A stretch of DNA of 64,000 bases from an uncultured Candidatus Saccharibacteria bacterium (lineage in GTDB: Bacteria; Patescibacteriota; Minisyncoccia; Phycocordibacterales; CSBR16-119): contig CAYRQF010000003.1 of NCBI GenBank assembly GCA_964426385.1, positions 22,938 through 86,937 of the forward strand, given 5' to 3'. Position numbers and translations under genes: made by a program. Position 1 is the stretch's first letter. Each line of letters begins with the position of its first letter. The notes beneath the pieces are model-generated. The model did no database searches and was not told the origin of the DNA. It saw only the letters and a list, made by a program, of their open reading frames with translations. Shown piece by piece: positions 6,221 through 62,203 of the stretch.

Positions 6221-9200
6221 ATGAAATTGCAACGAGCATTTTTCTTGGTTATCGCATTAGTATTTCTAGTCGGCTTCACAGTTACTGTATCAGGACCGGG
6301 CGGTGCATCACAGAGAGCACAGGTGACTGGTGCTGTATCGAATCAATCTATCAGAGGCTACTCTCTGGTAAACGCAGACACTGATACGATAATCGGACCA
6401 CTCTCCGATGGTCAAACAATCGATCTCGCAGAGCTTGGCACGAATCATGTAAATATCGTTGCAGAGACATCTCCTTCTGTCGTCGGTAGTGTTGCGTTTC
6501 ATCTTGATGATCTTGCTCGTGTTGTCAAGAATAGCGCTCCATATGCTCTCGGCGGACACAACAACGCCGGCAATTTCTACGCGGCGAATCTCTCGGTCGG
6601 AGATCATACACTAAAGACTCAGGCATTTACTCTGGCCCGTGCTCGCGGACTGGGTAGTGCTGTAAGCGAGATTCGATTCAGCGTCGTCGGAGGATCGCCG
6701 AGATCGTCTGGTGGTCAAACTCAGGCTAGTTCTGATTCAACGACACCCATCTCTAACACACAGCAGACTCATTCGACTCCTGGCAATGTTGCGAATGTAA
6801 CAGGTGCTGAAGTCCAAGAAATCAAATCTTTCACTCTAATAAATGCTGACACCAACCAAGAGATAGTGGCGATAGAGAACGGTGCAGTTTTAGATATTCA
6901 GAATCTCGGTACCACGAATCTCACCATCAGGGCCAACGCTACTCCAACTAATGTCGGCTCAGTTAAGTTCTACCTTGATAGTGTGGCGGTGCGGACAGAC
7001 AATCTTTTTCCGTATACCAATGTCGCGAGTACAACAACTGATGATTATCGACCATGGTCATTTACTCCGGGACAAGAGTACTCAATAACAGCAATACCAT
7101 TTAGTCTCTCTCGCGCTCGCGGTGTAGAGGGTACACCGCTAACTGTTTCTTTCACCATCGGGCAAAATCCAGTCGGTGGGCATGAACCTGTAGTTGGACG
7201 ATCTATGGACCCTTCTGTTCCTGCTATGGGGTGTCTAACTGCTACGGTTACCAATGACCCAAATGGTGGCAATAACCCAGGCACCATAACCATCGATTGG
7301 CCAGATGTTTCTGGACATCCATACTATAAAGCTTGGAGAATTCAGAATGGACAAGTGGAAGTATCTACCGAAAATCAGGGTGGTGCCGTTACATATAACT
7401 CTATGACCCCTGGAACATGGACGATCAGAGTAGCTTTCCTTGAAGCGGGCGCACTACCAAACACAAGTGCAGACTGGGGACCAGAGTCTGAAATCAGTAA
7501 TCTCGTCATAAGTACTAGTATCCCAGGTCCTGTAACAACTACAACATGCGGGCAAGAGCCAGTCGAGTCTGCACAGCTCAAAGTGTTCCTTGGTGGAGCA
7601 TACAACTCCTCTACAGGACTTATGTCCACTGCACTTAATGATGCAAACGTTATACCTCTCACTGAACCTTACACGGGAGAAGGTTATCAGTTTACTAACG
7701 GCTCAGGCTCATCGATTTCTTCTGGCGTCCTCAACGCTACAGGAAATGACGCAATCGTTGATTGGGTTATCGTCGAACTACGAAATCAAAACAACAATCT
7801 AGATATAGTAAGTTCTCGCCCAGCACTACTACAAGCAGATGGAGAAGTCGTTGGTCTAAACGGCACTACTCCGATATTTGACTCTTTCTCTTCGGGCACA
7901 TACTACGTAGTCGTCCATCACCGAAACCACTTGGCTGTCATGACTGCGAATCCGGTCAACATCAGTAATTCTGTAGACTTGACCAACTCAACGCTCTGGG
8001 GAACCAATGCCGCCAAATTGGTCAGCGGAACAAAGGTTCTATGGCCAGGTGATGTTAATAATGATGGTCTCGTAAAATACACAGGCGGAAACAACGACAG
8101 AGATCCGATCCTCCAAGTCGTGGGCTCAAATACGCCAAATAATGTTGTTACAAACGCCTATGCAAAAGCTGACCTAAACATGGATAGCACTGTTAAGCAT
8201 ACTGGTACGAAGAACGACAGAGACATTATTTTCCAGTCGATAGGTTCAGTAGATCCAACAGTAGTGAATGTGGAACAATTACCTCAACCATCTAGTACCA
8301 CCATCACTTCTATACAGGTAGTAAATACACAGGGTGTGGTACAGCAGACACTTTCTGCTGGGCAGACTATCAACATAGGTACTCAAAATGGTGGCTACGG
8401 AACAAGCATTGCTCTCAAAGCCAACACTAGTACTAGTCCTGTACCAGGAAGTGTTAAATATACCCTCACGCGCGCAGGCAATACGCATGAAAATATAGAT
8501 AACGCTGCTCCATTCTCATCTCATGGTGATACAGGAGGAAACTATACAGCCTGGACCAGCCTACAGCCAGGCGCATATCATCTAACCGCTTTGCCATATG
8601 ATGGAGCTAATGCCACAGGAGCATCAGGTACGGGTGCAGACTTCGACTTCGTTGTCGTAAACAATGATACTGTCGCCCCTCTCGCGCCACAGAATGTATC
8701 AATCAATTACCGATCGGCAGATGAGATAAGACTCTCATGGAGTCCTTCAGTTGGTGCGACGAACTATCAGGTAGTAAGGACAGGTAATGGACAGACATTC
8801 CCACTTCAGTCTGGTACAACTTTTAACGACACCACTGGGCTAACAAGCAATGGAACATTCTCTTATGTGGTCACTGCCATTAACTCAAATGGTCAGGTGT
8901 CGCCTAACTCAACGTCTATCGATGCTCCGACTCTGTCACCAGCCTTCACAGCCGGTACACTGGTTGCTCCAAATGCCAACAATACCCAGGTTAGAGCACT
9001 GCCAGAGAATCCGACGCTTGTTGGAACTGTTAACACTACGAACAACGGATCTGTTGTTACCGGAACATCACCTTCAGGGCATGTTGTCTGGGTAAAGGGC
9101 GTTACCCCAGCTCCAGATGTCCGATATCTCCGAACCACATTTACCAGCCCTGCACTATCTGGTCCAGGCTGGGTAGATCAGACAAAGCTGATCACGTATG

Positions 9201-12200
9201 TTGCGCCGGCTGCACCACTGCCTCCAACTAACTTCACAGGCTCTGGCACATCAACCTCGAACATCAACCTCACATGGACAGATGTTGCTACAAATGAGAC
9301 AGGGTATGAGGTTCAGAGAGCGGCACTAACTGATACGAATTTTACTAGTCCGACAACGACCACTTACGGACCAAACTCTAACGCCACCTCGATATCTACC
9401 GGCCTCTCTGCGGGTACCGCATATCTATTCCGCATTAGAGCAGTTAGTTCGACAAGCGGACTCAATTCTGTGTGGGTTTACTCTGCCCCTGCTTCGATCT
9501 CTACGCAGGCTGCTCAGACAGCACCGAATGCACCAACTAACCTCACTGGTTCTGCTTCGTCGACATCACAAATAAATCTCTCATGGACAGATAATGCGAA
9601 TAATGAAACAGGCTTCACTCTTAATAGGGCTACAGCTCCTGATTTCAGTTCCGGATTTGTCACCACTAACGTGCCAGCAAACAGTCCGACAGCTCCAAGC
9701 ACGGTTAACCATCCTGTCACAGGGCTTGCTGCAGGACAGACATACTACTTCCAGGTTAAAGCGATAAATGGCACCGGAGATTCCGCTTGGGCAACTCCAA
9801 ACCCTCTTTCTGTGGCTACACAGAATGTTGTGGCCGGCACATGTAATCCTGGTACAGTTGCGCCAATGCTTCCACCGAACAACTCACCGGTTAATGACTT
9901 GTCTAGAACGAATGGTGCCAACAGATCTGTGCAGCTATCATCAGCTGTTACGGGTGCTAATCAGATAACGATATGTTGGGACACTGTTGCTCAGAGAACT
10001 ATAAGCGGCAGTATCTCTGTCTACAGGAAATCAGGTTACACTTCTACGAGCTGGGGTACAGCGATAGCTACTTTGGCTAATACAGAGACAAGTTATGTAG
10101 ACAATAGTGTTACCCAAGGCACTTATTACGAATACAAAGTATCTTTCTCACAGAGTTCAACTTCATCAGCAAGCGGTGTTAGCACTAACGGTACAGCCGC
10201 AGGATACATAGCTACTGGTATAAATGTTCCTGAGGAATCCAGCAGAGGTAAAATGGCCCTAGTTATAGACAACAGTATGGTAACCGGCACTAACGGAAGC
10301 GCTCCAACTGGAGGAGATTCAGCGCTTATGTCTAAAGTAAACACTCTAATAGATGACCTAAATGCTGACCGATGGACCGTCTATCCTATATACGTAGGAC
10401 GTGGTGATACCGTAGCAAGCGTCAAAGCGCTTATCGTTGCGCAGAATCCGGCCGCCATCTACTTGCTAGGACATGTTCCAGTAGATAAGACTCACACAAT
10501 GTCTCCTGACGGTCACGGAGATCAGATACCTTGGTCTTCAGACGCTTATTATTCCGTGTCAGGTACGTACGGAACAACTGTTGCCCCTGTTTATCAGATC
10601 GGCCGAGTCGATGCGTTCAAGATGGAGGTATTCGGCGCCGGTAATCCTTCTAGTGATGCTACCGCCGCTACAGCAGGAGAGAAAACTGTAATAGGAAATT
10701 ATCTGGACAAAGTACACAATTACAAGATTGGCTCCACTACTGTTCAGCAGAGAGCTATTATCAAGGACGCCCTTGATCACGCTTATTCCGGCTTCACTAG
10801 CGCACAAAATGCTACCGTTGGCGCTTGGTCAACATTCCCTTCAGTTGTTGGTTTGGCAAATACATATGTGACCAACGAGAGAGGAACTCTCTTGACTCCG
10901 TCTCTACAGGGCTCGAATGACACATACCTACTCATGCTTGCACAATCTGGTGGACAGTGTGACAGAGATAACGATTCAGCCACTGGAACATCTGCGGGAT
11001 TTGCGGCGATAAGCGGCGGAGCTGTGTTCAACATGGCCGGCGGCAGCCGTTTCGGAAGCTTCGATAACTGTATATCTTTCCGTGAAAATAACTTCTTAAA
11101 AGCGCTGCTGTTCGGTGGTAAAGGAATGGTTAGTCTCTATAGCTTAGATCATCACTGGTATCTCCACTCTCTGGCCATGGGACAGAATATTGGTTATGCG
11201 ACCAAGGTGTCCATGAATAATCACTCTACTCAGGTTTATACACCAGTCAGTTGGTATCAACAGCGAAATTACAACGCTTTTATGAGTCCACTCGGCGATC
11301 CATCTATTCGCGCCTCATACTTTACCATCCCGTCGACGTTTACTGCGAGCGGTACGGCAGGAAACCCTATAAACTTCTCATGGAGCAGTGTTTCAGGAGC
11401 AGAAGGCTACAATGTCTACAAGATTACTTCATCTGCTGTGACTAAACTTAACAGCTCGATGATAGCAAGTACGTCATACACAGGATCTGAAATATATACC
11501 TCAGGAGCCAAATACATGGTGACTGCGCTCGACCTTACGACCTCAGGAAGCGGTGGAACATATTATAGAGAATCCCTCGGAAAGATGACTCTCACAACAG
11601 GTGGAGGCGGAGGAGACTTGGCAGCTCCGACTACACCAGGAAGCTTCGCGGTGAGTGGAACAACTGCCTCAAGCGTAAATCTTACATGGACGGCCTCTAC
11701 AGGTAATCCAGTAGGAGAGGCGGTAACTTACAAGATCCTCCGAAGCAGTGCGACAAACGGCACATATACTCAGGTTGGAACCGATACTGCTTCACCTTAC
11801 TCCGACACGACTGTTACTGCAGGCAACACTTACTACTACAGGATTACAGCTTCTGATGCTGCAAGTAACACTTCACAGCCTGCACCCTCAGCGTCTACAG
11901 GCATCTCTGCTACAACTGTAGACAACCAAGCACCTTCTGCACCGGCAGGACTTATGTCGACAGCACAGACGACGGGAAGCATTACACTCACTTGGAACGC
12001 CTCCACGGGTAACCCTGTAGGCGAGACCATTAACTACAAGGTCTTCCGAAGTACGACAGCTAACGGAACATACACTCAGACAGGTAGCTCTACAACTAAT
12101 ACAACATTCACTGATTCAGGACTAACAGCGGGAACAACTTATTACTATAAAGTGTCTGCAACAGACGCTTCCAATAACTCTTCCGCTCAAAATCCTTCTT

Positions 12201-14989
12201 CGGGTTACGGTGCTGCGACAAGTGCTCAAGCGGACACTCAGCCACCAACCGTACCGACAGGTCTTGCTGTTACAGCAACTACAGCTTCAAGTATTTCGTT
12301 ATCTTGGAATGCTTCAACTGATGTTGGAGGAAGTATCGTACAAGGGTATCTCATTTATCGTAGCGCAACGAGCGGTGGTACATATGACACCATAGGAAGT
12401 TCTAGTGGTACTTCATATACTGATTCTGGTCTTGCCCCTAATACAACTTACTATTACAAGGTTACGGCAATTGATAACTCCCCTAACGGCAATCAGTCTG
12501 CTCAGACACAGTATGTTTCTGGTACAACTGCTGCTGTTACCGGAGGTGGCTCAGGACAGGTACTTGGTCTCATGGGTGTATACGCAGGACCAAACAACAG
12601 TGAGGACGTAACACCGGGAGCTAACCCAGCAGGTGTGTCAGACTACTACGTTGACTGCGTCGCTGGAAATGACAGTAATAATGGAACTTCAGCCGCTACT
12701 GCATGGAGAACACTAGAAAAATTCAACACTTCAGGCGCCGGCCAGATGCAACCAGGATCTAGAGCGTTCTTCAAGAGAGGATGTACGTTCTATAAAACAG
12801 ATGTATATCCGATGGGAATATATGATGGTGGAATCCTCAGGGTTTCTAACTCAGGAAATGCATCAAACTATGTAGAATATAGGGCCTACGGCACAGGAGC
12901 GGCTCCAGTATTCTCTGGCGCGGTACCTGTTACTGGCTGGACTCAACACCAGGGAAATATTTACAAGGCAAACATCGGAGCAAATAAGAACGTTCGATAC
13001 TTGTTTGCCAACAACTCTGGCCAGACACTCGCTCGCTTCCCAAACAAGAGTGCTGGTAATACAGTCTGGATGAAGACAGATCATATCACTAACCCTGGAG
13101 GAGTATCTCTCAATGTCGAAGACTCGTCTTCTACTGATGGAGCACTTCCAACCTCTACAGCAAATAACCTAGCTGGAGGTGAATATGCAGCTAGGTTTAT
13201 GAACTGGGCCTTCGTGGTTGCGCCGATTACAGCCCATTCAGGTCAGACCATTACCGTTTCATTCCAGGGTGGAATGAACCAGGTGCCATGCTACATACCA
13301 AACTGCTCTAACACCATTTATCCTGAAGCTGGCTGGGGATACTTCGTTCAGAACAAGCTATCCCTCCTAGACACCGCAGGTGAGTGGTACTACGACAATG
13401 CCTCTGGTCAACTCTACTTCTGGGCGCCAGGCGGAGTGAATCCGAGCACTATGACTGTAGAAGCGGCAGTTCACCGAAACGGTGTTCACATGCTCGGTGG
13501 TATCCATCATGTAAAGGTAAAGAACCTTGCGTTCGAGAAGTTCAACAAATTCAGTTACGGAAGTTCTGACAAGGGTGCGGCGGTGTTCATTCAAGACTGG
13601 GATGGATCGTCTGGAGTACTCAGTAACATCGTTGAGAATGTTGAGATCAAGAATACTCCTATCGGTGTTCGCGTCGAAGGTGTCGAATCAACAGGACCAT
13701 CAAACGGTAACAAAATACTCAATTCTTATATTCATGACATATTCGACATTGGAATGCTCTCATACGGTCTCGGCCACCTCTACCAGGGTAACGTGATTGA
13801 GAATATCGCTCTGGCCCCTGAGCTTGCCGCTGACACCGATGAGTGGAACCATATGTACGGCTTCGTCTCAACCGGTGGTAACGTTGACTTCATCGGCAAT
13901 ATAGTACGAAATATCGGTTACATCGGAGTTAACTATGTTCAGAACGGTGAAATCCGGAATAACTTAATCGAAAACATATCTCTAACTATTAACGATGGTT
14001 GTGGTATCTGCGCCGATGGAGCAGAGAATGATCTCCTCGTGAAGAGAAATGTTGTTAACCATGTGTACGGAAACATTGTTGGCCTACCTTCAACATTCGT
14101 TCATGCGACAGCGCTTGGCTCAGGTATATCAACAGGCGATAGGAATAGTATCGGTGGAATCTTCGAGGAGAATGTTGTTAACGATGCTGGAAACTCTGGT
14201 ATCACGTTCGACAACAATACCTTCTCGGCGAATATGCAGATGAGGAATAACACGATTTACACGAATCAGCCGGGTAACTCTAACGGTGCTAAGGGTATCT
14301 CAATGTATGATCAGTCTGTGGGCGTATATCACCCAGGAGAGAACAATGCCCAGTCACTCTATGACTTCGATTTGGGTCACAGTGTATACGGTAACAAGGT
14401 TTACACACTACATCAGAACAACAACAGTCTCTATGAGGCACGCGTTCTAACTTCTACAAGTGGTGGACATACAGACTTTGGAGATTATTGGGGCAATTAC
14501 TTCTTCCACCCATACTCTACTAACACAATCGTGAATTATCGACCAGCACCGTTGGTAACCACAGGAGACCTTATCTGGACTCTCACAAATGCACCAGTTT
14601 ATTCAACGGCAAGCACGAACACATCTTCCGGCACTGTGTCAACAGGAACAAAAGGTTATATCTCAGGTACTGAGTCAAACTACCGATGGTTCGTAACTTT
14701 CAACAACGGACAATCTGGCTGGATGAGGTCTTATGAAATCGCAATGGCAAAGAAGAACATCGCAGAATTCCAGCAGGTTTATAACCAGCCTCCATCCGGA
14801 CAGCCTCAGAACACACAGCGTGGAGTAGGGGATTCACTGCCGACGCTTTATGTCAACACAACTGGCTCTCCGATGTCCGCGAATATCGGTTCCGGTAAGT
14901 GCGGAAGTAATGGTCAGACACTCGCAAATCCTTACCCACTTAACACCTTTGCTGATGCGATTGTTCCAGAGATATGTAGCGAGCAATAA
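6221..14989 (+). CDS. giant secreted surface protein (2922 aa): N-terminal repeated beta-sandwich-like domains, dockerin-like Ca-binding repeat pair, at least 6 fibronectin-III domains, central Cys/His globular domain, C-terminal right-handed parallel beta-helix
   Basis: Signal peptide. FN3 signature xAPxNLxxxxxSxxxIxLxWT...NETGY repeated. DVNNDG...NDRD appears twice. NxxIxNN beta-helix rungs near the C-terminus. Confidence 0.9.
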   Translation: MKLQRAFFLVIALVFLVGFTVTVSGPGGASQRAQVTGAVSNQSIRGYSLVNADTDTIIGPLSDGQTIDLAELGTNHVNIVAETSPSVVGSVAFHLDDLARVVKNSAPYALGGHNNAGNFYAANLSVGDHTLKTQAFTLARARGLGSAVSEIRFSVVGGSPRSSGGQTQASSDSTTPISNTQQTHSTPGNVANVTGAEVQEIKSFTLINADTNQEIVAIENGAVLDIQNLGTTNLTIRANATPTNVGSVKFYLDSVAVRTDNLFPYTNVASTTTDDYRPWSFTPGQEYSITAIPFSLSRARGVEGTPLTVSFTIGQNPVGGHEPVVGRSMDPSVPAMGCLTATVTNDPNGGNNPGTITIDWPDVSGHPYYKAWRIQNGQVEVSTENQGGAVTYNSMTPGTWTIRVAFLEAGALPNTSADWGPESEISNLVISTSIPGPVTTTTCGQEPVESAQLKVFLGGAYNSSTGLMSTALNDANVIPLTEPYTGEGYQFTNGSGSSISSGVLNATGNDAIVDWVIVELRNQNNNLDIVSSRPALLQADGEVVGLNGTTPIFDSFSSGTYYVVVHHRNHLAVMTANPVNISNSVDLTNSTLWGTNAAKLVSGTKVLWPGDVNNDGLVKYTGGNNDRDPILQVVGSNTPNNVVTNAYAKADLNMDSTVKHTGTKNDRDIIFQSIGSVDPTVVNVEQLPQPSSTTITSIQVVNTQGVVQQTLSAGQTINIGTQNGGYGTSIALKANTSTSPVPGSVKYTLTRAGNTHENIDNAAPFSSHGDTGGNYTAWTSLQPGAYHLTALPYDGANATGASGTGADFDFVVVNNDTVAPLAPQNVSINYRSADEIRLSWSPSVGATNYQVVRTGNGQTFPLQSGTTFNDTTGLTSNGTFSYVVTAINSNGQVSPNSTSIDAPTLSPAFTAGTLVAPNANNTQVRALPENPTLVGTVNTTNNGSVVTGTSPSGHVVWVKGVTPAPDVRYLRTTFTSPALSGPGWVDQTKLITYVAPAAPLPPTNFTGSGTSTSNINLTWTDVATNETGYEVQRAALTDTNFTSPTTTTYGPNSNATSISTGLSAGTAYLFRIRAVSSTSGLNSVWVYSAPASISTQAAQTAPNAPTNLTGSASSTSQINLSWTDNANNETGFTLNRATAPDFSSGFVTTNVPANSPTAPSTVNHPVTGLAAGQTYYFQVKAINGTGDSAWATPNPLSVATQNVVAGTCNPGTVAPMLPPNNSPVNDLSRTNGANRSVQLSSAVTGANQITICWDTVAQRTISGSISVYRKSGYTSTSWGTAIATLANTETSYVDNSVTQGTYYEYKVSFSQSSTSSASGVSTNGTAAGYIATGINVPEESSRGKMALVIDNSMVTGTNGSAPTGGDSALMSKVNTLIDDLNADRWTVYPIYVGRGDTVASVKALIVAQNPAAIYLLGHVPVDKTHTMSPDGHGDQIPWSSDAYYSVSGTYGTTVAPVYQIGRVDAFKMEVFGAGNPSSDATAATAGEKTVIGNYLDKVHNYKIGSTTVQQRAIIKDALDHAYSGFTSAQNATVGAWSTFPSVVGLANTYVTNERGTLLTPSLQGSNDTYLLMLAQSGGQCDRDNDSATGTSAGFAAISGGAVFNMAGGSRFGSFDNCISFRENNFLKALLFGGKGMVSLYSLDHHWYLHSLAMGQNIGYATKVSMNNHSTQVYTPVSWYQQRNYNAFMSPLGDPSIRASYFTIPSTFTASGTAGNPINFSWSSVSGAEGYNVYKITSSAVTKLNSSMIASTSYTGSEIYTSGAKYMVTALDLTTSGSGGTYYRESLGKMTLTTGGGGGDLAAPTTPGSFAVSGTTASSVNLTWTASTGNPVGEAVTYKILRSSATNGTYTQVGTDTASPYSDTTVTAGNTYYYRITASDAASNTSQPAPSASTGISATTVDNQAPSAPAGLMSTAQTTGSITLTWNASTGNPVGETINYKVFRSTTANGTYTQTGSSTTNTTFTDSGLTAGTTYYYKVSATDASNNSSAQNPSSGYGAATSAQADTQPPTVPTGLAVTATTASSISLSWNASTDVGGSIVQGYLIYRSATSGGTYDTIGSSSGTSYTDSGLAPNTTYYYKVTAIDNSPNGNQSAQTQYVSGTTAAVTGGGSGQVLGLMGVYAGPNNSEDVTPGANPAGVSDYYVDCVAGNDSNNGTSAATAWRTLEKFNTSGAGQMQPGSRAFFKRGCTFYKTDVYPMGIYDGGILRVSNSGNASNYVEYRAYGTGAAPVFSGAVPVTGWTQHQGNIYKANIGANKNVRYLFANNSGQTLARFPNKSAGNTVWMKTDHITNPGGVSLNVEDSSSTDGALPTSTANNLAGGEYAARFMNWAFVVAPITAHSGQTITVSFQGGMNQVPCYIPNCSNTIYPEAGWGYFVQNKLSLLDTAGEWYYDNASGQLYFWAPGGVNPSTMTVEAAVHRNGVHMLGGIHHVKVKNLAFEKFNKFSYGSSDKGAAVFIQDWDGSSGVLSNIVENVEIKNTPIGVRVEGVESTGPSNGNKILNSYIHDIFDIGMLSYGLGHLYQGNVIENIALAPELAADTDEWNHMYGFVSTGGNVDFIGNIVRNIGYIGVNYVQNGEIRNNLIENISLTINDGCGICADGAENDLLVKRNVVNHVYGNIVGLPSTFVHATALGSGISTGDRNSIGGIFEENVVNDAGNSGITFDNNTFSANMQMRNNTIYTNQPGNSNGAKGISMYDQSVGVYHPGENNAQSLYDFDLGHSVYGNKVYTLHQNNNSLYEARVLTSTSGGHTDFGDYWGNYFFHPYSTNTIVNYRPAPLVTTGDLIWTLTNAPVYSTASTNTSSGTVSTGTKGYISGTESNYRWFVTFNNGQSGWMRSYEIAMAKKNIAEFQQVYNQPPSGQPQNTQRGVGDSLPTLYVNTTGSPMSANIGSGKCGSNGQTLANPYPLNTFADAIVPEICSEQ

Positions 14990-19643: not shown

Positions 19644-19671
19644 GGTATTAAAAGCCTAGCTTTTATCTGCT

Positions 19672-19789
19672 TGTCCCGTTAGAGATGCTTCGTTAAAATT
19701 TTAAGAGTCGGAGAACTATAAGATGTTCATTTATTATTTGCAAAATAATAATTTAATACGCAAACCGAAGGTTTGCTATCTCTAACGGG
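19672..19789. repeat. ~118-bp intergenic element with 12-bp perfect terminal inverted repeats (CCCGTTAGAGAT / ATCTCTAACGGG), copy 1; right end abuts the comEC ATG
   Basis: Direct sequence comparison with copy 2 at 45305-45424. Confidence 0.7.
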
Positions 19790-21289
19790 ATGAAAAGTAG
19801 AATATTTCTTTCTATAGTTTTCGGGTTCTTGGTGGGTGTACTCCTAAGTTCGTTTTATACGTTCGGCCTCGCTATCGTCGGGCTAGTGGCACTAATAGGC
19901 CTAACTTTTCTCATCATCAGCATATTTGAGCATAACCTTCGCACGACATTTATTATTATTTCAATATTTCTTCTTTGCTCCTCAGCTGGGATACTCCGGT
20001 TTCATGCCAAGGATGCAGGTGAACCGAAGAATACACTGGATAATTTCGTAAACGAAAGCGTAGTTCTCGAGGGCGTGATTCTGAGTGAAGTCGAGAGACG
20101 TGAGGGAAGTCAGCGTGTCGTACTATCGGCTAATAATATAACTCTACGTGACGTCGTATATCCGATAAATCAAAAGATTCTAGTTTCGACAGAATTATTC
20201 CCAGAGTTTTCTTATGGTGAGAGAGTGTCAGTGAGCGGAAAGCTAGAGAAGCCCGAGAATTTCATAACTGATGTCGGTAAAGAGTTCGACTATGTGAACT
20301 ATCTAAAAAGAGAAAGTATCTATTACATCACTTCATTTGCAGAGGTAGAATTTGAAAGTGATGGCCATGGTAGCCGACTCAAGACAAGCATTCTGTCGAT
20401 CAAGAAAAAGTTCCTCAGCTCGATCGAGCGCGCCGTACCGGCTCCAGAATCTGCCCTCCTTTCCGGACTATTGCTCGGAGTGAAGTCCTCACTCGGAGAC
20501 CGGTTACAACAGGATTTCGTCAATACCGGGTTGGTACATATCATTGTTCTCTCAGGATACAATGTCACGATTATTGCTGAGGCGCTTATCAAGATGCTAT
20601 CGTTCGCCTCTATATCTGCCGGCATATATTTTGGCTCGCTCGCGATCATCCTGTTCGCTATCATGACTGGTGCCGGAGCCACAATCATCCGTGCCAGTAT
20701 CATGGCGATACTCGCACTCGTCGCGAGAGCTACAGGGAGAAATTATGATATAACTCGTGCACTACTTATCGCTGGCGTCGTGATGATCATCCAGAATCCA
20801 TATATCCTGGTTTTCGATATATCATTTCAGTTGTCGTTCCTCGCTACGCTCGGGCTCATATATGTTTCACCGATATTTCAGAAATGGTTTCATTTTCTTC
20901 CTGAAAGGTTCGGTATCAGAGAAGTCGCCGGGGCGACCGTCGGAGTGCAGGCTTTTGTTCTGCCTTTTATCCTCTACAAGATGGGCAACCTTTCCCTCAT
21001 AGCCCCGATTACAAATGTACTAGTTTTACCCTTTATTCCGGTGACGATGCTTCTCGGATTCCTCGCCGGATCAGTATCTTTTATCCTGCCAGTATTGGGA
21101 TTACCATTCGCCTGGGCCACATATTTATTGCTACATGGAGAGATCTGGATCGTAGAGACGTTCTCACGGATACCGTTCGGGAGTATTGAGATTATGCGTT
21201 TTCCGTTAGTGCTCGTTATTATTTTCTACGCCGTTATAACCTGGCTTCTGTGTAGATATTATAGGAAAATAGAAAAGCGCATTGTATGA
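19790..21289 (+). CDS. comEC: ComEC/Rec2 competence membrane channel (DUF4131 + ComEC transmembrane domains)
   Basis: Competence domain motif GLVHIIVLSGYNV. Polytopic membrane protein. Confidence 0.85.
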   Translation: MKSRIFLSIVFGFLVGVLLSSFYTFGLAIVGLVALIGLTFLIISIFEHNLRTTFIIISIFLLCSSAGILRFHAKDAGEPKNTLDNFVNESVVLEGVILSEVERREGSQRVVLSANNITLRDVVYPINQKILVSTELFPEFSYGERVSVSGKLEKPENFITDVGKEFDYVNYLKRESIYYITSFAEVEFESDGHGSRLKTSILSIKKKFLSSIERAVPAPESALLSGLLLGVKSSLGDRLQQDFVNTGLVHIIVLSGYNVTIIAEALIKMLSFASISAGIYFGSLAIILFAIMTGAGATIIRASIMAILALVARATGRNYDITRALLIAGVVMIIQNPYILVFDISFQLSFLATLGLIYVSPIFQKWFHFLPERFGIREVAGATVGVQAFVLPFILYKMGNLSLIAPITNVLVLPFIPVTMLLGFLAGSVSFILPVLGLPFAWATYLLLHGEIWIVETFSRIPFGSIEIMRFPLVLVIIFYAVITWLLCRYYRKIEKRIV

Positions 21290-32867: not shown

Positions 32868-32963
32868 AGTGGCTAGCTTATAGCTTTTAGAAATCAAAAA
32901 TCCCCGTGAGGGGATTTTTGATTGGTGTCCCATAAGCTAAAAGCAATCAGCTAGAAGCTACTT
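32868..32963. repeat. inverted pair of the short AGCTAKAAGCTAAAAGC repeat family flanking the fusA terminator
   Basis: Left arm ctagcttatagcttttag (reverse orientation) and right arm ataagctaaaagcaatcagctagaagcta bracket the hairpin at 32896-32919. Confidence 0.7.
32896..32919. terminator. stem-loop terminator aaaaatccccgtgaggggattttt
   Basis: Perfect hairpin with A and T runs on both sides, so bidirectional. Confidence 0.65.
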
Positions 32964-33248
32964 TGTGGCGAAATAGCTCATAGCGATGCCGAATATGCAC
33001 ATGGCTCCTATAACAGGTCCTAGCACCCAGACGTTTGACGGTGTGATGGCAACAACTAGAGCGGTCATGATGACTGCCGCCGTACCAACGCTCTTGGATA
33101 TGGATATCAAATGAAATTCGTCTACAGGTGGTCGTTTGGCGACGACAACTTTGTCTTGGAGAGGCTTTGAACCAAAACCTTTACGAACCTTCTTCTTTGA
33201 GGAAGATTTTTTCTTTGGTTTAATTTGTAATTCTATTTCGTTAGCCAT
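32958..33248 (-). CDS. small basic membrane protein (hypothetical)
   Basis: Lys-rich N-terminus and two C-terminal TM helices. Start chosen at MANEIE; the ORF track extends to 33314. Confidence 0.45.
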   Translation of the reverse strand: MANEIELQIKPKKKSSSKKKVRKGFGSKPLQDKVVVAKRPPVDEFHLISISKSVGTAAVIMTALVVAITPSNVWVLGPVIGAMCIFGIAMSYFATK

Positions 33249-44890: not shown

Positions 44891-44937
44891 CATTTCATGC
44901 TAAAATGGGTTTACAGTTATCAGTTAATACAATATTT

Positions 44938-45303
44938 ATGGAAATAATATATTTGCTCGGACGCATACTTTTGGGAGGGTACTTCATCTACAACGGCTAC
45001 AATCATTTCGCGAACTTGGACAATCTCACTGGCTACGCCAAGTCTAAAAAAGTCCCCATGGCCAAAGAGGGTGTTGTCGTGACAGGTCTGATGATGATCA
45101 TCGGTGGAGCGACTATCCTCACTGGACTCAGTATGACTATCGGTCTATGGATACTAGTAGCATTCCTCATCGTTACGAGTTTCATGATGCATCAGTTCTG
45201 GAAGATGACTGACCCGATGGCACGTATGGGCGAGGAGATCAACTTTACTAAAAATATCGCACTTGCTGGAGCACTCCTCCTCATCCTTGCGATGAAAATG
45301 TAA
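44938..45303 (+). CDS. DoxX-family small membrane protein
   Basis: LGRILLGGYFIYNGYNHF DoxX pattern. The ORF-track start at 44905 may be the real start. Confidence 0.65.
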   Translation: MEIIYLLGRILLGGYFIYNGYNHFANLDNLTGYAKSKKVPMAKEGVVVTGLMMIIGGATILTGLSMTIGLWILVAFLIVTSFMMHQFWKMTDPMARMGEEINFTKNIALAGALLLILAMKM

Positions 45304-45304
45304 T

Positions 45305-45424
45305 TTATCCCGTTAGAGATGTTTTTGTTTAAAGATATTTCAGAGGGTCAATAATTACTGAAAGTTATTTTACTAGAGGAATTAACCAAGATACGCATAT
45401 TAATAATTTGCTATCTCTAATGGG
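45305..45424. repeat. ~118-bp element with terminal inverted repeats CCCGTTAGAGAT / ATCTCTAATGGG, copy 2; right end abuts the ATG of the PCD gene
   Basis: Same termini and shared internal blocks (aataatt...atacgca...tttgct) as copy 1 at 19672-19789. Confidence 0.7.
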
Positions 45425-45748
45425 ATGGATCTAGCTCAGAAAAAATGCATTCCGTGTGAGGTGGGCGGTATGCCTCTCTCGGCAGAGAGATTGGAAACGC
45501 TTAGACCTCACGTACCTCTATGGGAGATAGAAGGGAATAAGTCTATTTCTCGTGAATTTGAATTCAAAGACTTTGTTGAAAACATGGCTTTTGTGAATAG
45601 GGTAGCGGAACTTGCCGAATCCGAAGGTCATCATCCGGATATGAATATCCATGATTGGAATAAGCTCACGATCAAGCTTAGTACTCACGCTATCGGGGGA
45701 CTGTCAGAGAATGACTTTATTTTGGCTTCAAAAATCGATACTCTGTAG
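45425..45748 (+). CDS. pterin-4a-carbinolamine dehydratase (PCD/DCoH)
   Basis: EGHHPD signature motif. Confidence 0.85.
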   Translation: MDLAQKKCIPCEVGGMPLSAERLETLRPHVPLWEIEGNKSISREFEFKDFVENMAFVNRVAELAESEGHHPDMNIHDWNKLTIKLSTHAIGGLSENDFILASKIDTL

Positions 45749-45823
45749 TTGACGAATCGCTAAAGTTGTAGTATGTTCTAGCTGAACAATTCCGTTCTCT
45801 AACGTTCCAAAACCACTAGCTTC

Positions 45824-50963: not shown

Positions 50964-53900
50964 ATGGATAAGGATACATCTACTCCGAAGAAGTCCGACG
51001 CCGCTCTCAAGGAAGAGGCGGTACTTAAATTCTGGGCGGATAATGGTATTTTCGAGAAAAGCTTGGCCAAGGATTCACCAAAAGGCGAGTTCGTTTTCTT
51101 CGAGGGTCCGCCAACGGCGAACGCCAAGCCAGCACTTCACCACCTAGAAGCCCGCGCCTTCAAAGACGTTATCCCTCGTTACAAGACCATGCAGGGCTTC
51201 CATGTCCGTCGCCAGGGAGGCTGGGACACTCACGGACTTCCTGTAGAGCTCCAGATCGAGAAGAAGCTCGGACTCAACTCGAAGAAAGCTATCGAGGAGT
51301 ATGGTATCGAGAAATTTAACCGTGAATGTCGGGAGAGCGTTTTCCAGTACATTAAAGACTGGGAAGACTTCACCGACCGTATCGGATACTGGGTGGACAA
51401 AAAGAACGCGTACTTCACATTCGACAATTCCTACATCGAGTCTGTCTGGAATGTCATGGCCAAGGTAAACGAGCGGGGACTACTCTACAAAGACTACCGT
51501 ATCGTGCCATGGTGTTCACGTTGCGGAACGCCACTCGCGTCACATGAGCTCGCACAGGGCTACGAAGATGTAAAAGATCTTTCGATATTCGTAAAATTCA
51601 AAGTAGTAGGCGCCACGAATACATATCTGCTCGCTTGGACGACGACGCCTTGGACTCTCCCCGGCAATGTCGCGTTGGCTGTTGGAGAAAAGATTGATTA
51701 TGTGAAAGTGAAAATCGGCGAAGAACTTCTGATTCTTGCCAAAACTCGGCTTGAGGTTTTAACCGAAAGTTACGAAATAGTAGAAGAAATAAAAGGTTCA
51801 GACCTGGTAGGGCTTTCATACGAACCACTATATCCATTCATCGCCAATTCACTAGAAGCTAAAAGCGATAAGCTAGAAGCTAGTTTTAAAGTATATTCTG
51901 CAGACTTCGTCACGACCGAGGATGGAACAGGTATCGTTCACATCGCACCTATGTATGGCCAGGACGACTTCGAGCTTGGGACCAAGATCGGGCTTCCGAA
52001 AGAACATGTAGTTGGAGTTGATGGTAAATTCCTCCCAGACACCGGTTTTTTCTCTGGAAGATTCGCTATGGAGAAAGATGAGAACGGCAAACCGACACTC
52101 GCTGTTGATGTCATAAACGACCTTACTACACGGGGGCTATTCTTTGGGAAGAAAAATTACGAACACACGTATCCACATTGTTGGCGATGTAAAACTCCGC
52201 TCATATATTACGCACGCGATTCTTGGTACATCCGCATGTCGGAGCTTCGTGATGAGCTGGTTAGAGAAAATGAAAGCATCAACTGGGAACCATCTCATAT
52301 AAAAGAGGGTCGCTTCGGCGAATGGCTACGTGAAATCAAAGACTGGGCAATATCCCGTGAGCGTTACTGGGGTACACCGCTCCCAGTCTGGGTAGCCGAA
52401 GACGGAGAGAAGTGGGTTGTGGGAAGCGTCGACGAACTCCGCAAGCATACCAAGCAATCTATAACTAAGATTATTTTTGTAAGACACGGACAGTCCGATG
52501 CAAATGTTGCACTTGTTTCTTCTAGTGTTCGTGACGCCCACCCACTAACGGAGCTTGGTCAAAAGCAGGCCAGGGATACCGCTGAGAAACTCCAGAGTCA
52601 TGACATTGACGTCGTTTATTGTTCGCCGATTCTACGTGCGAGACAAACAGCAGAGGCTTATCTGGAGTTGGCTGGAAAAGAAATGATGTTAGATGATCGT
52701 CTCGCTGAGATTGGTAGTGGTAGTTGGGAGGAGAAGACCCAACATGACCCGAGTATAAAGGCAGAGCGTGATGCTTATAAAGCTATGTCGCCAGATGAGA
52801 GGTTCGTGTTTAAACGCGGAAGTACTGGCGAGAGTTGGTCTGACTTACAAACTCGGGTAAAAGATTTTTTAGATGAAGTGCTCGCGAAGCATGCTGGCAA
52901 GACTATTGTTTGTTTTGCCCATCAGGGGACTGACGAGATAGGAATAAAACTGCTAAGAAGTTTGGATAACAAATATGCCGCAGAAAATCTCTTTCATGAG
53001 ATTGAGAATGGGGAAGTATTTCCTTTGTATATTGATGACAGAACTCAGAAGGAGTTCGATCTCCATCGTCCATTTATTGATGACGTAGTTCTAGAAAAGG
53101 ATGGTAAAGAATTCCGCCGAGTCAAAGAAGTCATGGATGTCTGGTTCGACTCTGGCGCCATGCCGTTCGCTCAACACCACTATCCGTTCGAGAACAAAGA
53201 GTACGTTGATGGCCCGGGCTATCCGGCAGACTTCATCTCCGAAGCCGTCGACCAAACTCGTGGTTGGTTCTATACGCTTCATGCCGTGGGAGTGCTTATG
53301 GGCAAGGGCCGTGCATACAACAATTGTATCTGTCTCGGGCACATCCTCGACGACAAGGGCAAGAAGATGAGCAAATCTATCGGTAACATCGTGAACCCTT
53401 GGGAGATGATGGACAAATACGGCGTAGATACTCTACGTCTCTGGATGTACTCGGTGAACCAGCCGGGAGACTCGAAAAACTTCGACGAGAAAACTGTGGC
53501 GGAGCTCCGTAATAAAATATTTAACCTACTTTATAACGTCATTGCATTCTACGAGCTTTATCGCGACAAATCACTAGAAGCTAAAAGCGATAAACTAGAA
53601 GCTAGTTCTAACGTTCTGGATATCTGGATACTAGAACGCCTCGCCGAGCTCTCGAATACCATGACGACGGGTCTAGATAGTTACAAACTGATGGAGCCGG
53701 TTCGAGCTATGCGTGAATTTATCGATGAACTTTCCACGTGGTATGTTCGTCGTTCGCGTGATCGCCTGAAGGACGGTGATCAAGATGCAAAACGTACTCT
53801 ATATATCGTACTGAAGAATATGGCCCGTTTCCTGGCTCCATTTGCTCCTTTTGCCGCCGAGGATATTTGGCAGACTTTACGTACGGACGCTGACCCATTG

Positions 53901-54368
53901 AGTGTGCACCTCGCAAACTGGCCCGACCAGAAGCCGACTGACCCGAAAATCTCCGAGGATATGCAGTCTGTCCGTGAGCTTGTTACTCTAGGTCTCGAGC
54001 TCCGTCAGAAGAGTGGAGTTAAGGTCAAACAACCTCTCGCAAGCTTTACTGTAACCAAGGAGCTAGCAGTCGAATACCAAGAGCTTCTAAAAGATGAGCT
54101 CAACGTTAAAGAGATTGCCGTCGGCGAAGCTGTTGGTTTAAACACGGACATCACACCAGAGCTCAAGAGGGAGGGAGACTTCCGAGAATTCCTGCGAAAC
54201 GTTCAGGGTCTTCGTAAAGACGCAGAACTTTCTCCGAACGACATGGTTACTTTGATTGCCCCAGAATCCTCTAAAGAGGTAATCATCGGTTTTGAAGGTG
54301 AGCTCAAGAAAGTTGCCGGGATAAAAGAAATAAAATTCGAAGGAGAGGAAATTAGGATAGAAAAATAA
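50964..54368 (+). CDS. ileS: isoleucyl-tRNA synthetase with an inserted histidine-phosphatase (PGAM-like) domain and two in-frame SLEAKSDKLEAS repeat insertions
   Basis: PHCWRCKTPLIYY, KMSKS, WFDSGAMP and DIWILERL motifs. Insert ~52465-53050 carries RHGQSDAN, LTELGQKQA, SPILRARQTA and AHQGT motifs. Confidence 0.95.
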   Translation: MDKDTSTPKKSDAALKEEAVLKFWADNGIFEKSLAKDSPKGEFVFFEGPPTANAKPALHHLEARAFKDVIPRYKTMQGFHVRRQGGWDTHGLPVELQIEKKLGLNSKKAIEEYGIEKFNRECRESVFQYIKDWEDFTDRIGYWVDKKNAYFTFDNSYIESVWNVMAKVNERGLLYKDYRIVPWCSRCGTPLASHELAQGYEDVKDLSIFVKFKVVGATNTYLLAWTTTPWTLPGNVALAVGEKIDYVKVKIGEELLILAKTRLEVLTESYEIVEEIKGSDLVGLSYEPLYPFIANSLEAKSDKLEASFKVYSADFVTTEDGTGIVHIAPMYGQDDFELGTKIGLPKEHVVGVDGKFLPDTGFFSGRFAMEKDENGKPTLAVDVINDLTTRGLFFGKKNYEHTYPHCWRCKTPLIYYARDSWYIRMSELRDELVRENESINWEPSHIKEGRFGEWLREIKDWAISRERYWGTPLPVWVAEDGEKWVVGSVDELRKHTKQSITKIIFVRHGQSDANVALVSSSVRDAHPLTELGQKQARDTAEKLQSHDIDVVYCSPILRARQTAEAYLELAGKEMMLDDRLAEIGSGSWEEKTQHDPSIKAERDAYKAMSPDERFVFKRGSTGESWSDLQTRVKDFLDEVLAKHAGKTIVCFAHQGTDEIGIKLLRSLDNKYAAENLFHEIENGEVFPLYIDDRTQKEFDLHRPFIDDVVLEKDGKEFRRVKEVMDVWFDSGAMPFAQHHYPFENKEYVDGPGYPADFISEAVDQTRGWFYTLHAVGVLMGKGRAYNNCICLGHILDDKGKKMSKSIGNIVNPWEMMDKYGVDTLRLWMYSVNQPGDSKNFDEKTVAELRNKIFNLLYNVIAFYELYRDKSLEAKSDKLEASSNVLDIWILERLAELSNTMTTGLDSYKLMEPVRAMREFIDELSTWYVRRSRDRLKDGDQDAKRTLYIVLKNMARFLAPFAPFAAEDIWQTLRTDADPLSVHLANWPDQKPTDPKISEDMQSVRELVTLGLELRQKSGVKVKQPLASFTVTKELAVEYQELLKDELNVKEIAVGEAVGLNTDITPELKREGDFREFLRNVQGLRKDAELSPNDMVTLIAPESSKEVIIGFEGELKKVAGIKEIKFEGEEIRIEK
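51849..51885 (+). repeat. 36-bp repeat cactagaagctaaaagcgataagctagaagctag, in-frame within the ileS editing-domain region
   Basis: Near-identical copy at 53571-53606; related copies at 61387-61417 and 32868-32963. Confidence 0.8.
53571..53606 (+). repeat. 36-bp repeat copy, in-frame within the ileS anticodon-binding region (1 nt different from copy 1)
   Basis: tcactagaagctaaaagcgataaactagaagctagt. Confidence 0.8.
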
Positions 54369-59934: not shown

Positions 59935-61405
59935 ACCTGTATATATAACTACGACGCTTCCATACGTGAACAACGACCCTCATGTCGGTTTTGCCATGGA
60001 GATAATCCGTGCGGACGTACTAGCTCGATACCATAAGCTTATGGGTAAAGAGGTTTTTTTCAATACCGGAACAGACGAGCATGGACAGAAACTCCTCGCT
60101 GACGCAATGAAGGCAGGGAAGGAGGTCAAAGACTACGTCGATTTTTACGCCGAGAAGTTCCGTGGACTGAAAGACCTCCTTAATATCACCGACGAAGTCC
60201 ACTTTATCCGCACGACCGATGTCCATCATGAGGCAGCAGCACAGGCTCTCTGGAAGCTCGTCGATGGCAATGGCTACATCTACAAGAAAAATTACCAGAC
60301 CAAATACTGTGTCGGCTGCGAGCTCGAGAAAACAGATTCTGAACTAGGTGACAAGGGTCAGTGTCCGATACATCCAAACAAGGAAATAGAACTAATCGAT
60401 GAGGAGAATTACTTCTTCGCTTTTTCAAAGCTCGAGGGAAAACTTAAAGAGCTATATGATAATAATCCTCGTCTCGTTATTCCGGAATTCCGTTTCAACG
60501 AGATGAAGGCATTCCTCGACAGGGGTCTCCAGGACTTTTCTATATCCCGTCAGAAGGAAAAGATGTCGTGGGGTGTGCCGGTACCAGGGGATGACAAACA
60601 TGTCATGTATGTTTGGTTCGACGCACTCACGAACTATATCTCTACACTAGGGTGGCCAGAGGACGCTGAAGGCAACTATGCGAAATTCTGGCAGGACGGC
60701 CTAAAAATCCAGTACTGCGGTAAGGATAACCTCCGTCAGCAATCTATGATGTGGCAGGCGATACTTCTCGCAGCGAATCTACCAAATACAGATCATATAA
60801 TCATCGATGGGTTCATAAACTCTGGTGGACAGAAGATGAGTAAGTCTTTGGGAAACGTTATAAATCCTTACGACCTTATAAAAGACTATGAATCTGTTGC
60901 AGGAGATCTTGCACCAGATGTTTTGCGTTATTACATGCTTCGTCATGTAAATCCTTTCGAGGATTCAGACATGACACTTGATACATTTAAGGAAGCCTAT
61001 AATTCAGGTCTAACAAACGGACTAGGTAATTTGGTTTCTAGGGTGATGAAAATGGCCACTACTTATGGTGTGAGTCTTTCGGAGGATGAAAAAACAATGA
61101 CTTATTATGGTACAGGAACAGAAGATTTTTTGAATGACTACAATATGATGATAAAAATGGATGAGATTTGGGCAAATTTTAAAAGTATTGATGAGTCTAT
61201 AACAAGAACTGAACCCTTTAAGAAAATAAAGACAGATCCAGATCAAGCAAAAAGCGACGTCCATACAATGTTGGTCCATTTGCTTGGAGGTGCTCTCGCG
61301 TTGGAACCATTTTTACCTAAAACATCTTTAATTCTGCAAGTTCTAATAAAAGAGAATAAGATGCCTGAAACTCCGCTCTTTAACCGTCTAGAAGCTAAAA
61401 GCTAA
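59924..61405 (+). CDS. metG: methionyl-tRNA synthetase (short form); the last codons come from the short repeat (…RLEAKS)
   Basis: HVGF (HIGH-like) motif, KMSKS, single Zn-knuckle. The ORF track starts at 59876. Confidence 0.9.
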   Translation: MSNRPVYITTTLPYVNNDPHVGFAMEIIRADVLARYHKLMGKEVFFNTGTDEHGQKLLADAMKAGKEVKDYVDFYAEKFRGLKDLLNITDEVHFIRTTDVHHEAAAQALWKLVDGNGYIYKKNYQTKYCVGCELEKTDSELGDKGQCPIHPNKEIELIDEENYFFAFSKLEGKLKELYDNNPRLVIPEFRFNEMKAFLDRGLQDFSISRQKEKMSWGVPVPGDDKHVMYVWFDALTNYISTLGWPEDAEGNYAKFWQDGLKIQYCGKDNLRQQSMMWQAILLAANLPNTDHIIIDGFINSGGQKMSKSLGNVINPYDLIKDYESVAGDLAPDVLRYYMLRHVNPFEDSDMTLDTFKEAYNSGLTNGLGNLVSRVMKMATTYGVSLSEDEKTMTYYGTGTEDFLNDYNMMIKMDEIWANFKSIDESITRTEPFKKIKTDPDQAKSDVHTMLVHLLGGALALEPFLPKTSLILQVLIKENKMPETPLFNRLEAKS

Positions 61406-61417
61406 CAGCTATAAGCT
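61387..61417 (+). repeat. short-repeat copy ctagaagctaaaagctaacagctataagct spanning the metG stop and ending at the tatD ATG
   Basis: Matches the AGCTAKAAGCTAAAAGC-N4-AGCTAKAAGCT family. Confidence 0.7.
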
Positions 61418-62203
61418 ATGCGTTACTTCGATATCCATTCGCATCTAAACCTTTCGCCTCTATCGGAAGATAAGGCGAGGATCATAAAAACTCTCGAGGA
61501 AAAAGAAGTGAGTACAATTACTGTGGGTGTTGATCTCGTAACTTCTGAACAAGCTGTCGAGATCGCACAGGATAGCGTGAATCTTTTTGCTTCTGTAGGC
61601 TTTCACCCATCAGACGCGGGGAAGAAAGAGTTTGATGCAGAAAAATTCCGCGATCTCGCGGGTAGGGAAAAAGTAGTCGCCATCGGCGAATGCGGATTAG
61701 ATTACTTCCGGGTAGAGTCGAGCGACACTGAGACCAAGAATTTGCAGAAAGAAATTTTTATAAAACAAATCGATTTATCTATCGATAAAAATTTACCACT
61801 TATCCTCCATGTTCGTCCACAGAAGGGGACAATGGACGCCTATGAAGATGTTTTGGAAATTCTCCAATCTTACTCTCGCAAAAAACCAAGAGGCGACGTG
61901 CATTTTTTCGTTGGTTCTCCGGAAATTGCCCAAAGATTTTTGAGTCTAGGTTTTTACTTGTCATTCACTGGGGTTGTCACATTTGCCCGAGACTATGACG
62001 AAGTCATCAGACTCACCCCATTAGACCGTATCCTTACAGAAACCGATGCACCATTCGTCACACCCGTTCCATATAGGGGGCAGACATGCGAGCCATGGAT
62101 GGTGGAGGAGGTAGTCAGAAAGATTGCTGATATCAAGGGGCTCGAACTGGAAGAATTCCGTCTCCAAGTGATTCAGAACACCAAAAGCCTTTTTGGGGTC
62201 TAG
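61418..62203 (+). CDS. tatD: TatD-family metal-dependent deoxyribonuclease
   Basis: MRYFDIHSHL, ...HFF..., ETDAPF motifs. Confidence 0.9.
   Translation: MRYFDIHSHLNLSPLSEDKARIIKTLEEKEVSTITVGVDLVTSEQAVEIAQDSVNLFASVGFHPSDAGKKEFDAEKFRDLAGREKVVAIGECGLDYFRVESSDTETKNLQKEIFIKQIDLSIDKNLPLILHVRPQKGTMDAYEDVLEILQSYSRKKPRGDVHFFVGSPEIAQRFLSLGFYLSFTGVVTFARDYDEVIRLTPLDRILTETDAPFVTPVPYRGQTCEPWMVEEVVRKIADIKGLELEEFRLQVIQNTKSLFGV

Follow-up and report, generated by a model that had tools for sequence, protein, structure and literature searches.

The window, that is, the whole stretch of 64,000 nucleotides analysed here, carries the same element twice, at 45309–45424 and 19675–19789, with terminal inverted repeats (TIRs) as the boundaries of both copies (Table 1). 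The former, referred to as copy 2, is 116 bases long and stands in front of the gene for pterin-4a-carbinolamine dehydratase; its left arm begins five bases on from the stop codon (45301–45303) of a DoxX-family gene. The latter, copy 1, stands in front of comEC. Both are delimited by CCCGTTAGAGAT on the left and ATCTCTAAYGGG on the right, and each right end adjoins the ATG of a real gene (comEC, 19790; Pterin_4a, 45425), as the first-pass annotation had stated. When the window was searched for the 12-mer ATCTCTAACGGG with at most one mismatch, four matches were obtained, namely 19675–19686(−), 19778–19789(+), 45309–45320(−) and 45413–45424(+), which form two inverted pairs with gaps of 91 and 92 nt. 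Shuffled windows gave 0.24 matches on average, and four were reached in 0 of 100 shuffles. The pair of TIR-bounded copies noticed initially is therefore real. The arms of copy 1 are perfect; in copy 2, the single C-to-T change that had been noticed in the right arm is found at 45413–45424. Furthermore, the family profile and the covariance model both return exactly two copies in the 64 kb, both on the + strand, with covariance scores of 82.8 bits for copy 1 (+ strand) and 78.7 bits for copy 2.

Several details of the earlier description are revised. Its 12-mers stand, but the full repeat is 13 bp long and includes the A of the ATG, and the element starts not at 45305 but at 45309 (45308 with the 13th paired base included). 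Among the internal blocks said to be common to both copies, ‘atacgca’ and ‘tttgctatctctaa’ hold, but ‘aataatt’ is mere AT-rich background.

Table 1. Positions of the two element copies, their parts and the genes on either side of copy 2
Feature	Position	Strand	Remark
Left TIR, copy 2 (T + CCCGTTAGAGAT)	45308–45320	+	Exact 12-mer; 13th base pairs in 119 of 124 family members
Variable AT-rich core, copy 2	45321–45391	+	Unconserved across the family
Conserved TAC 5′ of hairpin, copy 2	45392–45394	+	
Subterminal hairpin, copy 2 (GCATATT-AAT-AATTTGC)	45395–45411	+	One T·T mismatch; covariation in the family
Right TIR, copy 2 (ATCTCTAATGGG + A)	45413–45425	+	Carries the C-to-T change; final A is base 1 of the dehydratase start codon
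Left TIR, copy 1	19674–19686	+	
TAC and hairpin, copy 1 (GCAAACC-GAA-GGTTTGC)	19757–19776	+	
Right TIR, copy 1	19778–19790	+	Final A is base 1 of the comEC start codon
Pterin-4a-carbinolamine dehydratase gene, downstream of copy 2	45425–45748	+	Pfam PF01329, E = 9e-31
DoxX-family gene, upstream of copy 2	44905–45303	+	1 or 7 nt from the dehydratase gene in two relatives

The element is not confined to the window. One genome per species was scanned for CCCGTTAGAGAT-N(75–105)-ATYTYTAAYGGG, and at least 119 loci were found in this collection of species-representative genomes; other copies thus exist, as the first-pass annotation required of a real element. The loci carry the labels of many Patescibacteria lineages (Saccharibacteria, Paceibacteria/Parcubacteria, Kazan and others), Omnitrophota, Planctomycetota and Elusimicrobia, and single contigs are labelled Ignavibacteria and Clostridia. 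This spread is argued to be real, rather than an artefact of binning or of mis-binned contigs, since the terminal base pair tracks the phylum label: among the copies from Omnitrophota, Ratteibacteria, Planctomycetota and Elusimicrobia, 31 of 32 have C..G, and 56 of the 69 Patescibacteria copies have T..A. Several copies can occur in one genome, with two in the 64-kb window, up to four in a single 8-kb locus (L102), and copies on four contigs of one assembly, CAZPCF01. The same arm pattern had 0 matches in 2.9 million viral contigs, so carriage by phages is unsupported. Neither the window, searched at the gathering score, nor five representative loci, searched at E ≤ 1, gave a match in Rfam. 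A full-text literature search with the arm sequences returned one match only, in an unrelated preprint on plant biosensors, and no description of the family came up in literature searches on MITEs (miniature transposable elements with inverted repeats) in Patescibacteria, the Candidate Phyla Radiation, Omnitrophota and related names.

For the anatomy of the family, 124 copies were oriented by their internal hairpin. They measure 99–127 bp, plus one variant of 190 bp. The TIRs, YCCCGTTAGAGAT ... ATCTCTAACGGGR, are invariant in their outer 9 bp, while the inner 4 vary yet stay complementary between the arms. The base before the left arm complements the base after the right arm in 119 of the 124 copies (T..A in 63, C..G in 56), hence an inverted repeat of 13 bp. 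Copies that share a locus with a primary match were not selected for perfect arms; here the outer eight bases, CCCGTTAG / CTAACGGG, are fixed, and arm positions 9–12 occur in seven variants, all complementary between arms (GAGAC/GTCTC, GAAGT/ACTTC, GAAGC/GCTTC, GAGGC/GCCTC, GAAAT/ATTTC, GAGAA/TTCTC and a triple change in L102).

Between the left arm, CCCGTTAGAGAT, and the hairpin lies an AT-rich core of about 55–70 nt without sequence conservation across the family. The hairpin is preceded by T, A and C in 56%, 79% and 75% of the Patescibacteria-type copies, respectively, the A and C being at least 90% conserved in a seed alignment of 42 sequences, and the right arm, ATCTCTAACGGG, follows one or two bases past the hairpin. 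The stem comprises 7–9 bp with an invariant closing G–C pair. Six of seven pairs change on both sides, 98% of the cells are paired, the observed level of covariation was reached in 0 of 500 shuffles, and 21 different stems occur among 42 copies. Since the stems vary and pairing is kept, the hairpin is conserved in structure, not in sequence. The two shared blocks that held, ‘atacgca’ and ‘tttgctatctctaa’, correspond to the conserved TAC–G junction and the hairpin; indeed, both window copies have ATACGCA and TTTGC near the right end.

No copy has coding capacity, the longest stop-free run being 42 codons. An internal promoter was considered and rejected: the only motif before the TAC is a weak TAAnnT, neither a conserved −35 element nor an extended −10 was found, and consensus scans of the window copies give scattered matches at differing positions. 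The 190-bp member (L035 859–1048) has about 75 extra nt in the hairpin loop and directly precedes the gene of a 310-aa XerC/D-like tyrosine recombinase.

Measured against orthologous sites, the element is an insertion, as copy 2 shows. Relatives keep the genes in the order SHMT, PNP-like, DoxX, dehydratase. The DoxX–dehydratase spacer contains the element in the window itself, in L120–122 (three assemblies of the same species) and in four assemblies of a relative (L203–206) whose dehydratase is 82% identical to that of the window, and it is empty in L207 (7 nt, dehydratase 81% identical) and L208 (1 nt, 82%). A one-codon difference at the N terminus is common to both filled lineages, which agrees with copy 2 having been gained once, in the ancestor of both. 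At comEC, no such element was present in about 60 loci of relatives that were inspected (ComEC 40–50% identical), most of which keep RNase H directly upstream with a spacer of roughly 0–30 nt.

The flanks carry a further trace of insertion. In 56% of the copies, positions −5 to −2 equal +2 to +5 exactly, giving a 4-bp direct repeat, and a short flanking direct repeat is the usual mark of a staggered transposase cut. The central dinucleotide of the repeat is identical in 75 of 124 copies, against 29 expected, a level reached in 0 of 2000 shuffles in which right flanks were shuffled within class. The commonest repeats are TGAA (25), TTCA (7), TTTA (6), TGGA (5), TAAA (4) and TTGA (4), with the consensus TNNA. 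A 6-bp target duplication was rejected, because −6 often differs from +1 and −1 from +6 (ATAAAC / GTAAAC, TTTGAC / GTTGAC). Separately, at least 12 copies without flanking duplication have CTTGC or CTTGT (CTTGY) as their left flank, paired with a right flank GTGAA, GTAAA or ATGAA; among them are L012, L020, L030, L050, L055, L063, L077, L099 and window copy 1 (19670–19674).

In addition, tandem copies with one common junction, GGG-GTTCAC-CCC, occur at L117 3370–3634 and L018 492–636, and a copy nested inside another copy at L001 3774–4159. The element is thus portable, as had been proposed: orthologous sites are filled or empty, about 60 comEC loci are free of it, at least 119 further copies precede unrelated genes, and 4-bp repeats as well as tandem and nested copies are found.

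The placement of the copies is strongly biased towards gene starts. In 56 of the 124 copies, the right arm is followed directly by ATG, which in almost every case is the start of a long ORF; the claim that the element supplies the immediate upstream context of genes extends in this way to the family. In the other phyla, the ORF usually starts 6–20 nt past the element, often after a GGAG-type ribosome-binding site, and in phyla that use such sites the copies sit just upstream of them. Of the Patescibacteria-type copies, 49 of 60 have their hairpin-bearing end towards the gene start, as do 28 of 48 others; in 14 copies it is the non-hairpin end alone that points there. The position of the upstream stop codon is not fixed. 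About half of the stops lie within 26 nt and the others 30–130 nt away, and the stop is sometimes the TGA of the left ATGA or a TAG inside the left arm. A juxtaposition of stop and start was therefore rejected as a general rule, and the variable distance indicates that the element is tied to the downstream start, not to the upstream stop.

The absence of a functional link between comEC and the dehydratase gene, pointed out in the first-pass annotation, holds family-wide. The 83 downstream proteins match 141 Pfam families, with no family in more than four proteins, and the products include tRNA synthetases, ribosome recycling factor, ribosomal protein S8, EF-G-type GTPases, SMC and glycosyltransferases. 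This diversity rules out a regulon of genes preceded by the element, and as the downstream genes are unrelated housekeeping genes, common expression behaviour is not to be expected. The first-pass observation is therefore partly confirmed, and its reading, that of a portable element providing the sequence up to the start codon, is supported.

None of the approximately 55 genes of the window is preceded by a Shine-Dalgarno-like sequence, and many have a TATAAT-like hexamer 6–12 nt before the ATG. This suggests that the window genes initiate without a ribosome-binding site, possibly on leaderless mRNAs. Where genes have no recognisable ribosome-binding sequence, a start preceded only by element sequence is not obviously handicapped.

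We consider it likely that the element represents a family of MITEs, that is, small non-coding mobile DNA, and it is best filed as a new family of that kind. Its features match the MITE definition of Delihas (2011, PMC3184786). It is short (under about 400 bp), has no transposase gene, carries TIRs and a flanking duplication, occupies sites that are filled or empty, and is present in several copies per genome. We infer that a transposase acting in trans would bind the conserved outer bases and paste the element into TNNA targets. In Patescibacteria, the geometry is A-TGRA-[T...A]-TGRA: the A that had opened the start codon remains on the left, and the terminal A of the element together with the duplicated TGRA rebuilds an intact ATG on the right; the gene survives, with all sequence upstream of its start codon now being element. 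The commonest intact duplication in Patescibacteria is TGAA (25 of the 69 exact-repeat copies), TGGA (5) being next among those that begin with TG. Retention of the original A on the left also explains why ATGNAT is so common in this group. A preference for ATGRA targets, together with the loss of copies that interrupted genes, could account for the Patescibacteria pattern; such a preference alone leaves the placement upstream of ribosome-binding sites in other phyla unaccounted for. The bias towards gene starts may reflect target choice or selection among survivors.

The source of such a transposase was sought at several levels. In 1.35 Mb of fetched loci, no autonomous or long element bearing these ends turned up; no gene is enclosed by a pair of arms, and only composites of separate small copies were seen there. 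Scans of the genome collection spanned gaps of up to 600 nt. The window ORFs tested are all ordinary genes, with no transposase among them. Likewise, no transposase lies between clustered copies, where housekeeping genes and one Xer-like integrase were found, and all-against-all clustering of 1238 ORFs gave no conserved neighbour family in more than 10 of 119 loci.

Some observations sit less easily with the MITE reading. An intact flanking repeat is missing from 44% of the copies, including both window copies; ends that are identical across phyla, with unrelated cores between them, are unusual; and abutment to the start codon persists where the upstream spacer is 30–120 nt, so that it is not a mere lack of room. 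Moreover, the complementary changes in the inner arms, together with a hairpin whose structure alone is conserved, point to recognition of a folded single strand, either DNA during transposition or RNA, for which a simple model of transposase binding does not account. Single mismatches in the arms are A·C about as often as G·U, and the hairpin has 6 G·U against 3 A·C; the mismatches thus show no strand preference that would favour DNA or RNA.

The role of RNA structure was weighed as an explanation in its own right. The element could be a cis-acting RNA leader in which the arms form a helix of 13–18 bp with the start codon at its base, mobility being secondary or ancient, and in which helix and hairpin would govern how the downstream gene is translated or its transcript processed by RNase III. 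Both window copies indeed fold with the arms paired (z = −6.5 and −3.4), and in both G·U pairs extend the helix over the AUG. The covariation of inner arm positions and hairpin and the predominance, among Patescibacteria-type copies, of those with the hairpin end towards the gene agree with such a role, as does the recurrent left flank CTTGY, which pairs with RUGA via wobble and lengthens the helix over the start codon. We nevertheless regard this explanation as unlikely, given that the downstream genes have no common function, that no Rfam family matches, that the arm mismatches on the hairpin-defined strand are A·C as often as G·U, that the arm of copy 2 is decaying around a near-neutral core, and that close relatives (L207, L208) do without the element. 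An excess of G·U over A·C in the flanks (44 against 5) was discarded as an artefact, as this comparison is confounded by the start codon, which fixes +2 and +3 as TG. The hallmarks of a riboswitch or a gene-specific cis-regulatory RNA are absent as well, with incoherent downstream genes and no match to a curated RNA family. A combination of both ideas, in our estimate improbable, would be a mobile ‘start-codon cassette’, more than a tolerated parasite and targeted to translation starts in at least four phyla, that rebuilds the ATG and gates or insulates initiation through an mRNA helix and hairpin; for example, the AUG would be held at the base of a 13–18 bp helix, and this helix would be opened by RNase III or by an upstream ribosome. 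If true, this would be a portable module of translational control in organisms without ribosome-binding sites.

Site-specific recombination, for example by a tyrosine recombinase, or inversion of the core as a phase switch, seems very doubtful. According to this explanation, the tandem junction ATCTCTAACGGG-GTTCAC-CCCGTTAGAGAT is a lox/dif-like site with 12-bp arms and a 6-bp spacer. Exactly one 6-nt junction is common to the tandem copies, a minority of copies is oppositely oriented within similar flanks (L003 versus L049), one copy precedes the XerC/D-like integrase gene, and we take GTTAGAG / CTCTAAC to resemble integron core sites. However, a flanking repeat that is 4 bp long and variable is more in keeping with a staggered transposase cut than with a fixed crossover core, integron attC sites have the opposite order to GTT...AAC, copies are mostly solitary among housekeeping genes, and integrase genes are not enriched near them. 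In addition, the eight copy 2 assemblies and the three copy 1 assemblies, which are consensus assemblies, have the element in one orientation only; both orientations at one locus, the trait of an invertible promoter (inverton), were not observed among these. A chance resemblance of two AT-rich intergenic regions, finally, is refuted. Outside the termini and the hairpin the window copies are 62% identical, about as similar as they are to members from unrelated genomes (best 0.61–0.65); of the similarity expected beyond the termini, the hairpin module is shared and the remaining sequence is no closer than between unrelated members. Against chance stand the 12-mer count (4 versus 0.24 expected), covariance scores of 79–83 bits and the same architecture at at least 119 other loci.

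Returning to the MITE reading, the window copies are old and probably immobile relics, for neither has an intact flanking repeat (CTTG versus TGAA in copy 1, TTTA versus TGGA in copy 2), the right arm of copy 2 is mutated and its core is nearly neutral. In the L203 ortholog of copy 2, the right arm has not only the same C-to-T change but a further one. Identity between the core of copy 2 and that ortholog is 74%, within the range of the 4-fold degenerate sites of the flanking genes (61% and 82%), so this core changes at a roughly neutral rate. Two further assemblies carry an identical copy 1.

The spacer at 45749–45823, in front of a 144-aa ORF, had been thought to contain fragments of both repeat families. 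None was detected by the nhmmer profile of the family (E ≤ 10) or by the covariance model (E ≤ 0.01), and the proposed fragment ‘ttctctaacg’ is unconserved, reading TTCTCCAACG in the orthologous spacer of a relative. The spacer as a whole is 89% identical to its L203 ortholog, above the 4-fold degenerate sites of the flanking genes, and contains a promoter-like TTGACG-17-TATGTT. This spacer has the look of an ordinary promoter or leader that is conserved, and the proposed repeat fragments are not real.

Among known systems, the Correia elements (CREE/NEMIS) of Neisseria are about 100–155 bp long, have TIRs and a short duplication but no transposase gene, and lie in many copies 5′ of genes, with a long stem possible in RNA; the Correia repeats are 26 bp and confined to one genus (Delihas 2011, PMC3184786). 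The present element is Correia-like in size, TIRs, short duplication, lack of a transposase gene, placement 5′ of genes and potential for an RNA stem. The Correia target duplication is TA. In contrast, the present element has 13-bp repeats, a 4-bp TNNA duplication and a structure-only hairpin, occurs in more than one phylum (several), and adjoins or rebuilds the start codon. Correia elements have been shown to act as promoters; for the present element such activity is unsupported, with no conserved −35 element found and only scattered consensus matches in the window copies. Neisseria REP2 and the IR repeats of Borrelia plasmids also lie directly upstream of genes and include the ATG as well as internal stem-loops (PMC3184786). 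These are described with a promoter and a ribosome-binding site, and not with TIRs and a target duplication; unlike them, the present element gives only the A of the ATG and no ribosome-binding site.

Likeness to other mobile systems is more partial. REPINs, mobilised by RAYT, are about 100 nt long, with two inverted arms round a variable spacer and compensatory changes in the arms, and single-strand Y1 transposition produces no flanking direct repeat. Unlike these, the arms of the present element are not self-complementary, so that there are no palindromic REP units, a 4-bp duplication is present, and among the genes inspected none encodes a RAYT. Integron attC sites have short cores, GTTRRRY / RYYYAAC, the remainder being conserved in structure and variable in length. 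The present element differs in the reversed order of its cores, GTTAGAG ... CTCTAAC on both strands, with GTT in the 5′ arm and AAC in the 3′ arm, and in having a 4-bp flank duplication, no cassette arrays and no adjacent integron integrase. PiggyBac has a 13-bp repeat that begins with CCC and a TTAA duplication. The 13-bp TIR, the CCC one base in, the 4-bp T..A duplication and the clean empty sites may point towards a cut-and-paste transposon of the piggyBac or IS1380 type, a likeness that we take as a lead only; unlike the TTAA of piggyBac, the target here is TNNA. What is unusual about the family, then, is the combination of outer ends identical across phyla, a covarying hairpin and a strong bias towards start sites, including the rebuilt ATG.

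Patescibacteria and Omnitrophota have small, tightly packed genomes, in which, to our knowledge, few mobile elements have been described. Identical 9-bp ends in several phyla would mark gene flow among co-occurring lineages, and the family would give a handle for finding its transposase. It would also offer a natural experiment on how genes tolerate replacement of their entire upstream region, and rebuilding of the ATG is a simple route to harmless insertion where genes overlap or have no ribosome-binding sites. For annotation, copies of the element account for puzzling gaps of 120–150 nt inside operons.

Other features were observed in the window. A family of 51-nt repeats occurs at 51842–51892 and 53564–53614, and also at 32920–32970 and 61378–61428. 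The first two copies are 90% identical and lie in frame within the ORF of a 1134-aa isoleucyl-tRNA synthetase (50964–54368), where both encode SLEAKSDKLEAS and bracket a stretch with an inserted histidine phosphatase domain (His_Phos_1, residues 503–667). At 19650–19664, straight after the stop codon of RNase H, lies a small hairpin, AAAAGC-CTA-GCTTTT, which is separated from copy 1 by 10 nt and is similar in sequence to the AGCTAAAAGC motif of this 51-nt family. Lastly, positions 6221–14989 hold an ORF of 2922 aa with fibronectin type III repeats and PhoD-like and GH141-like segments, which looks like a giant surface protein.
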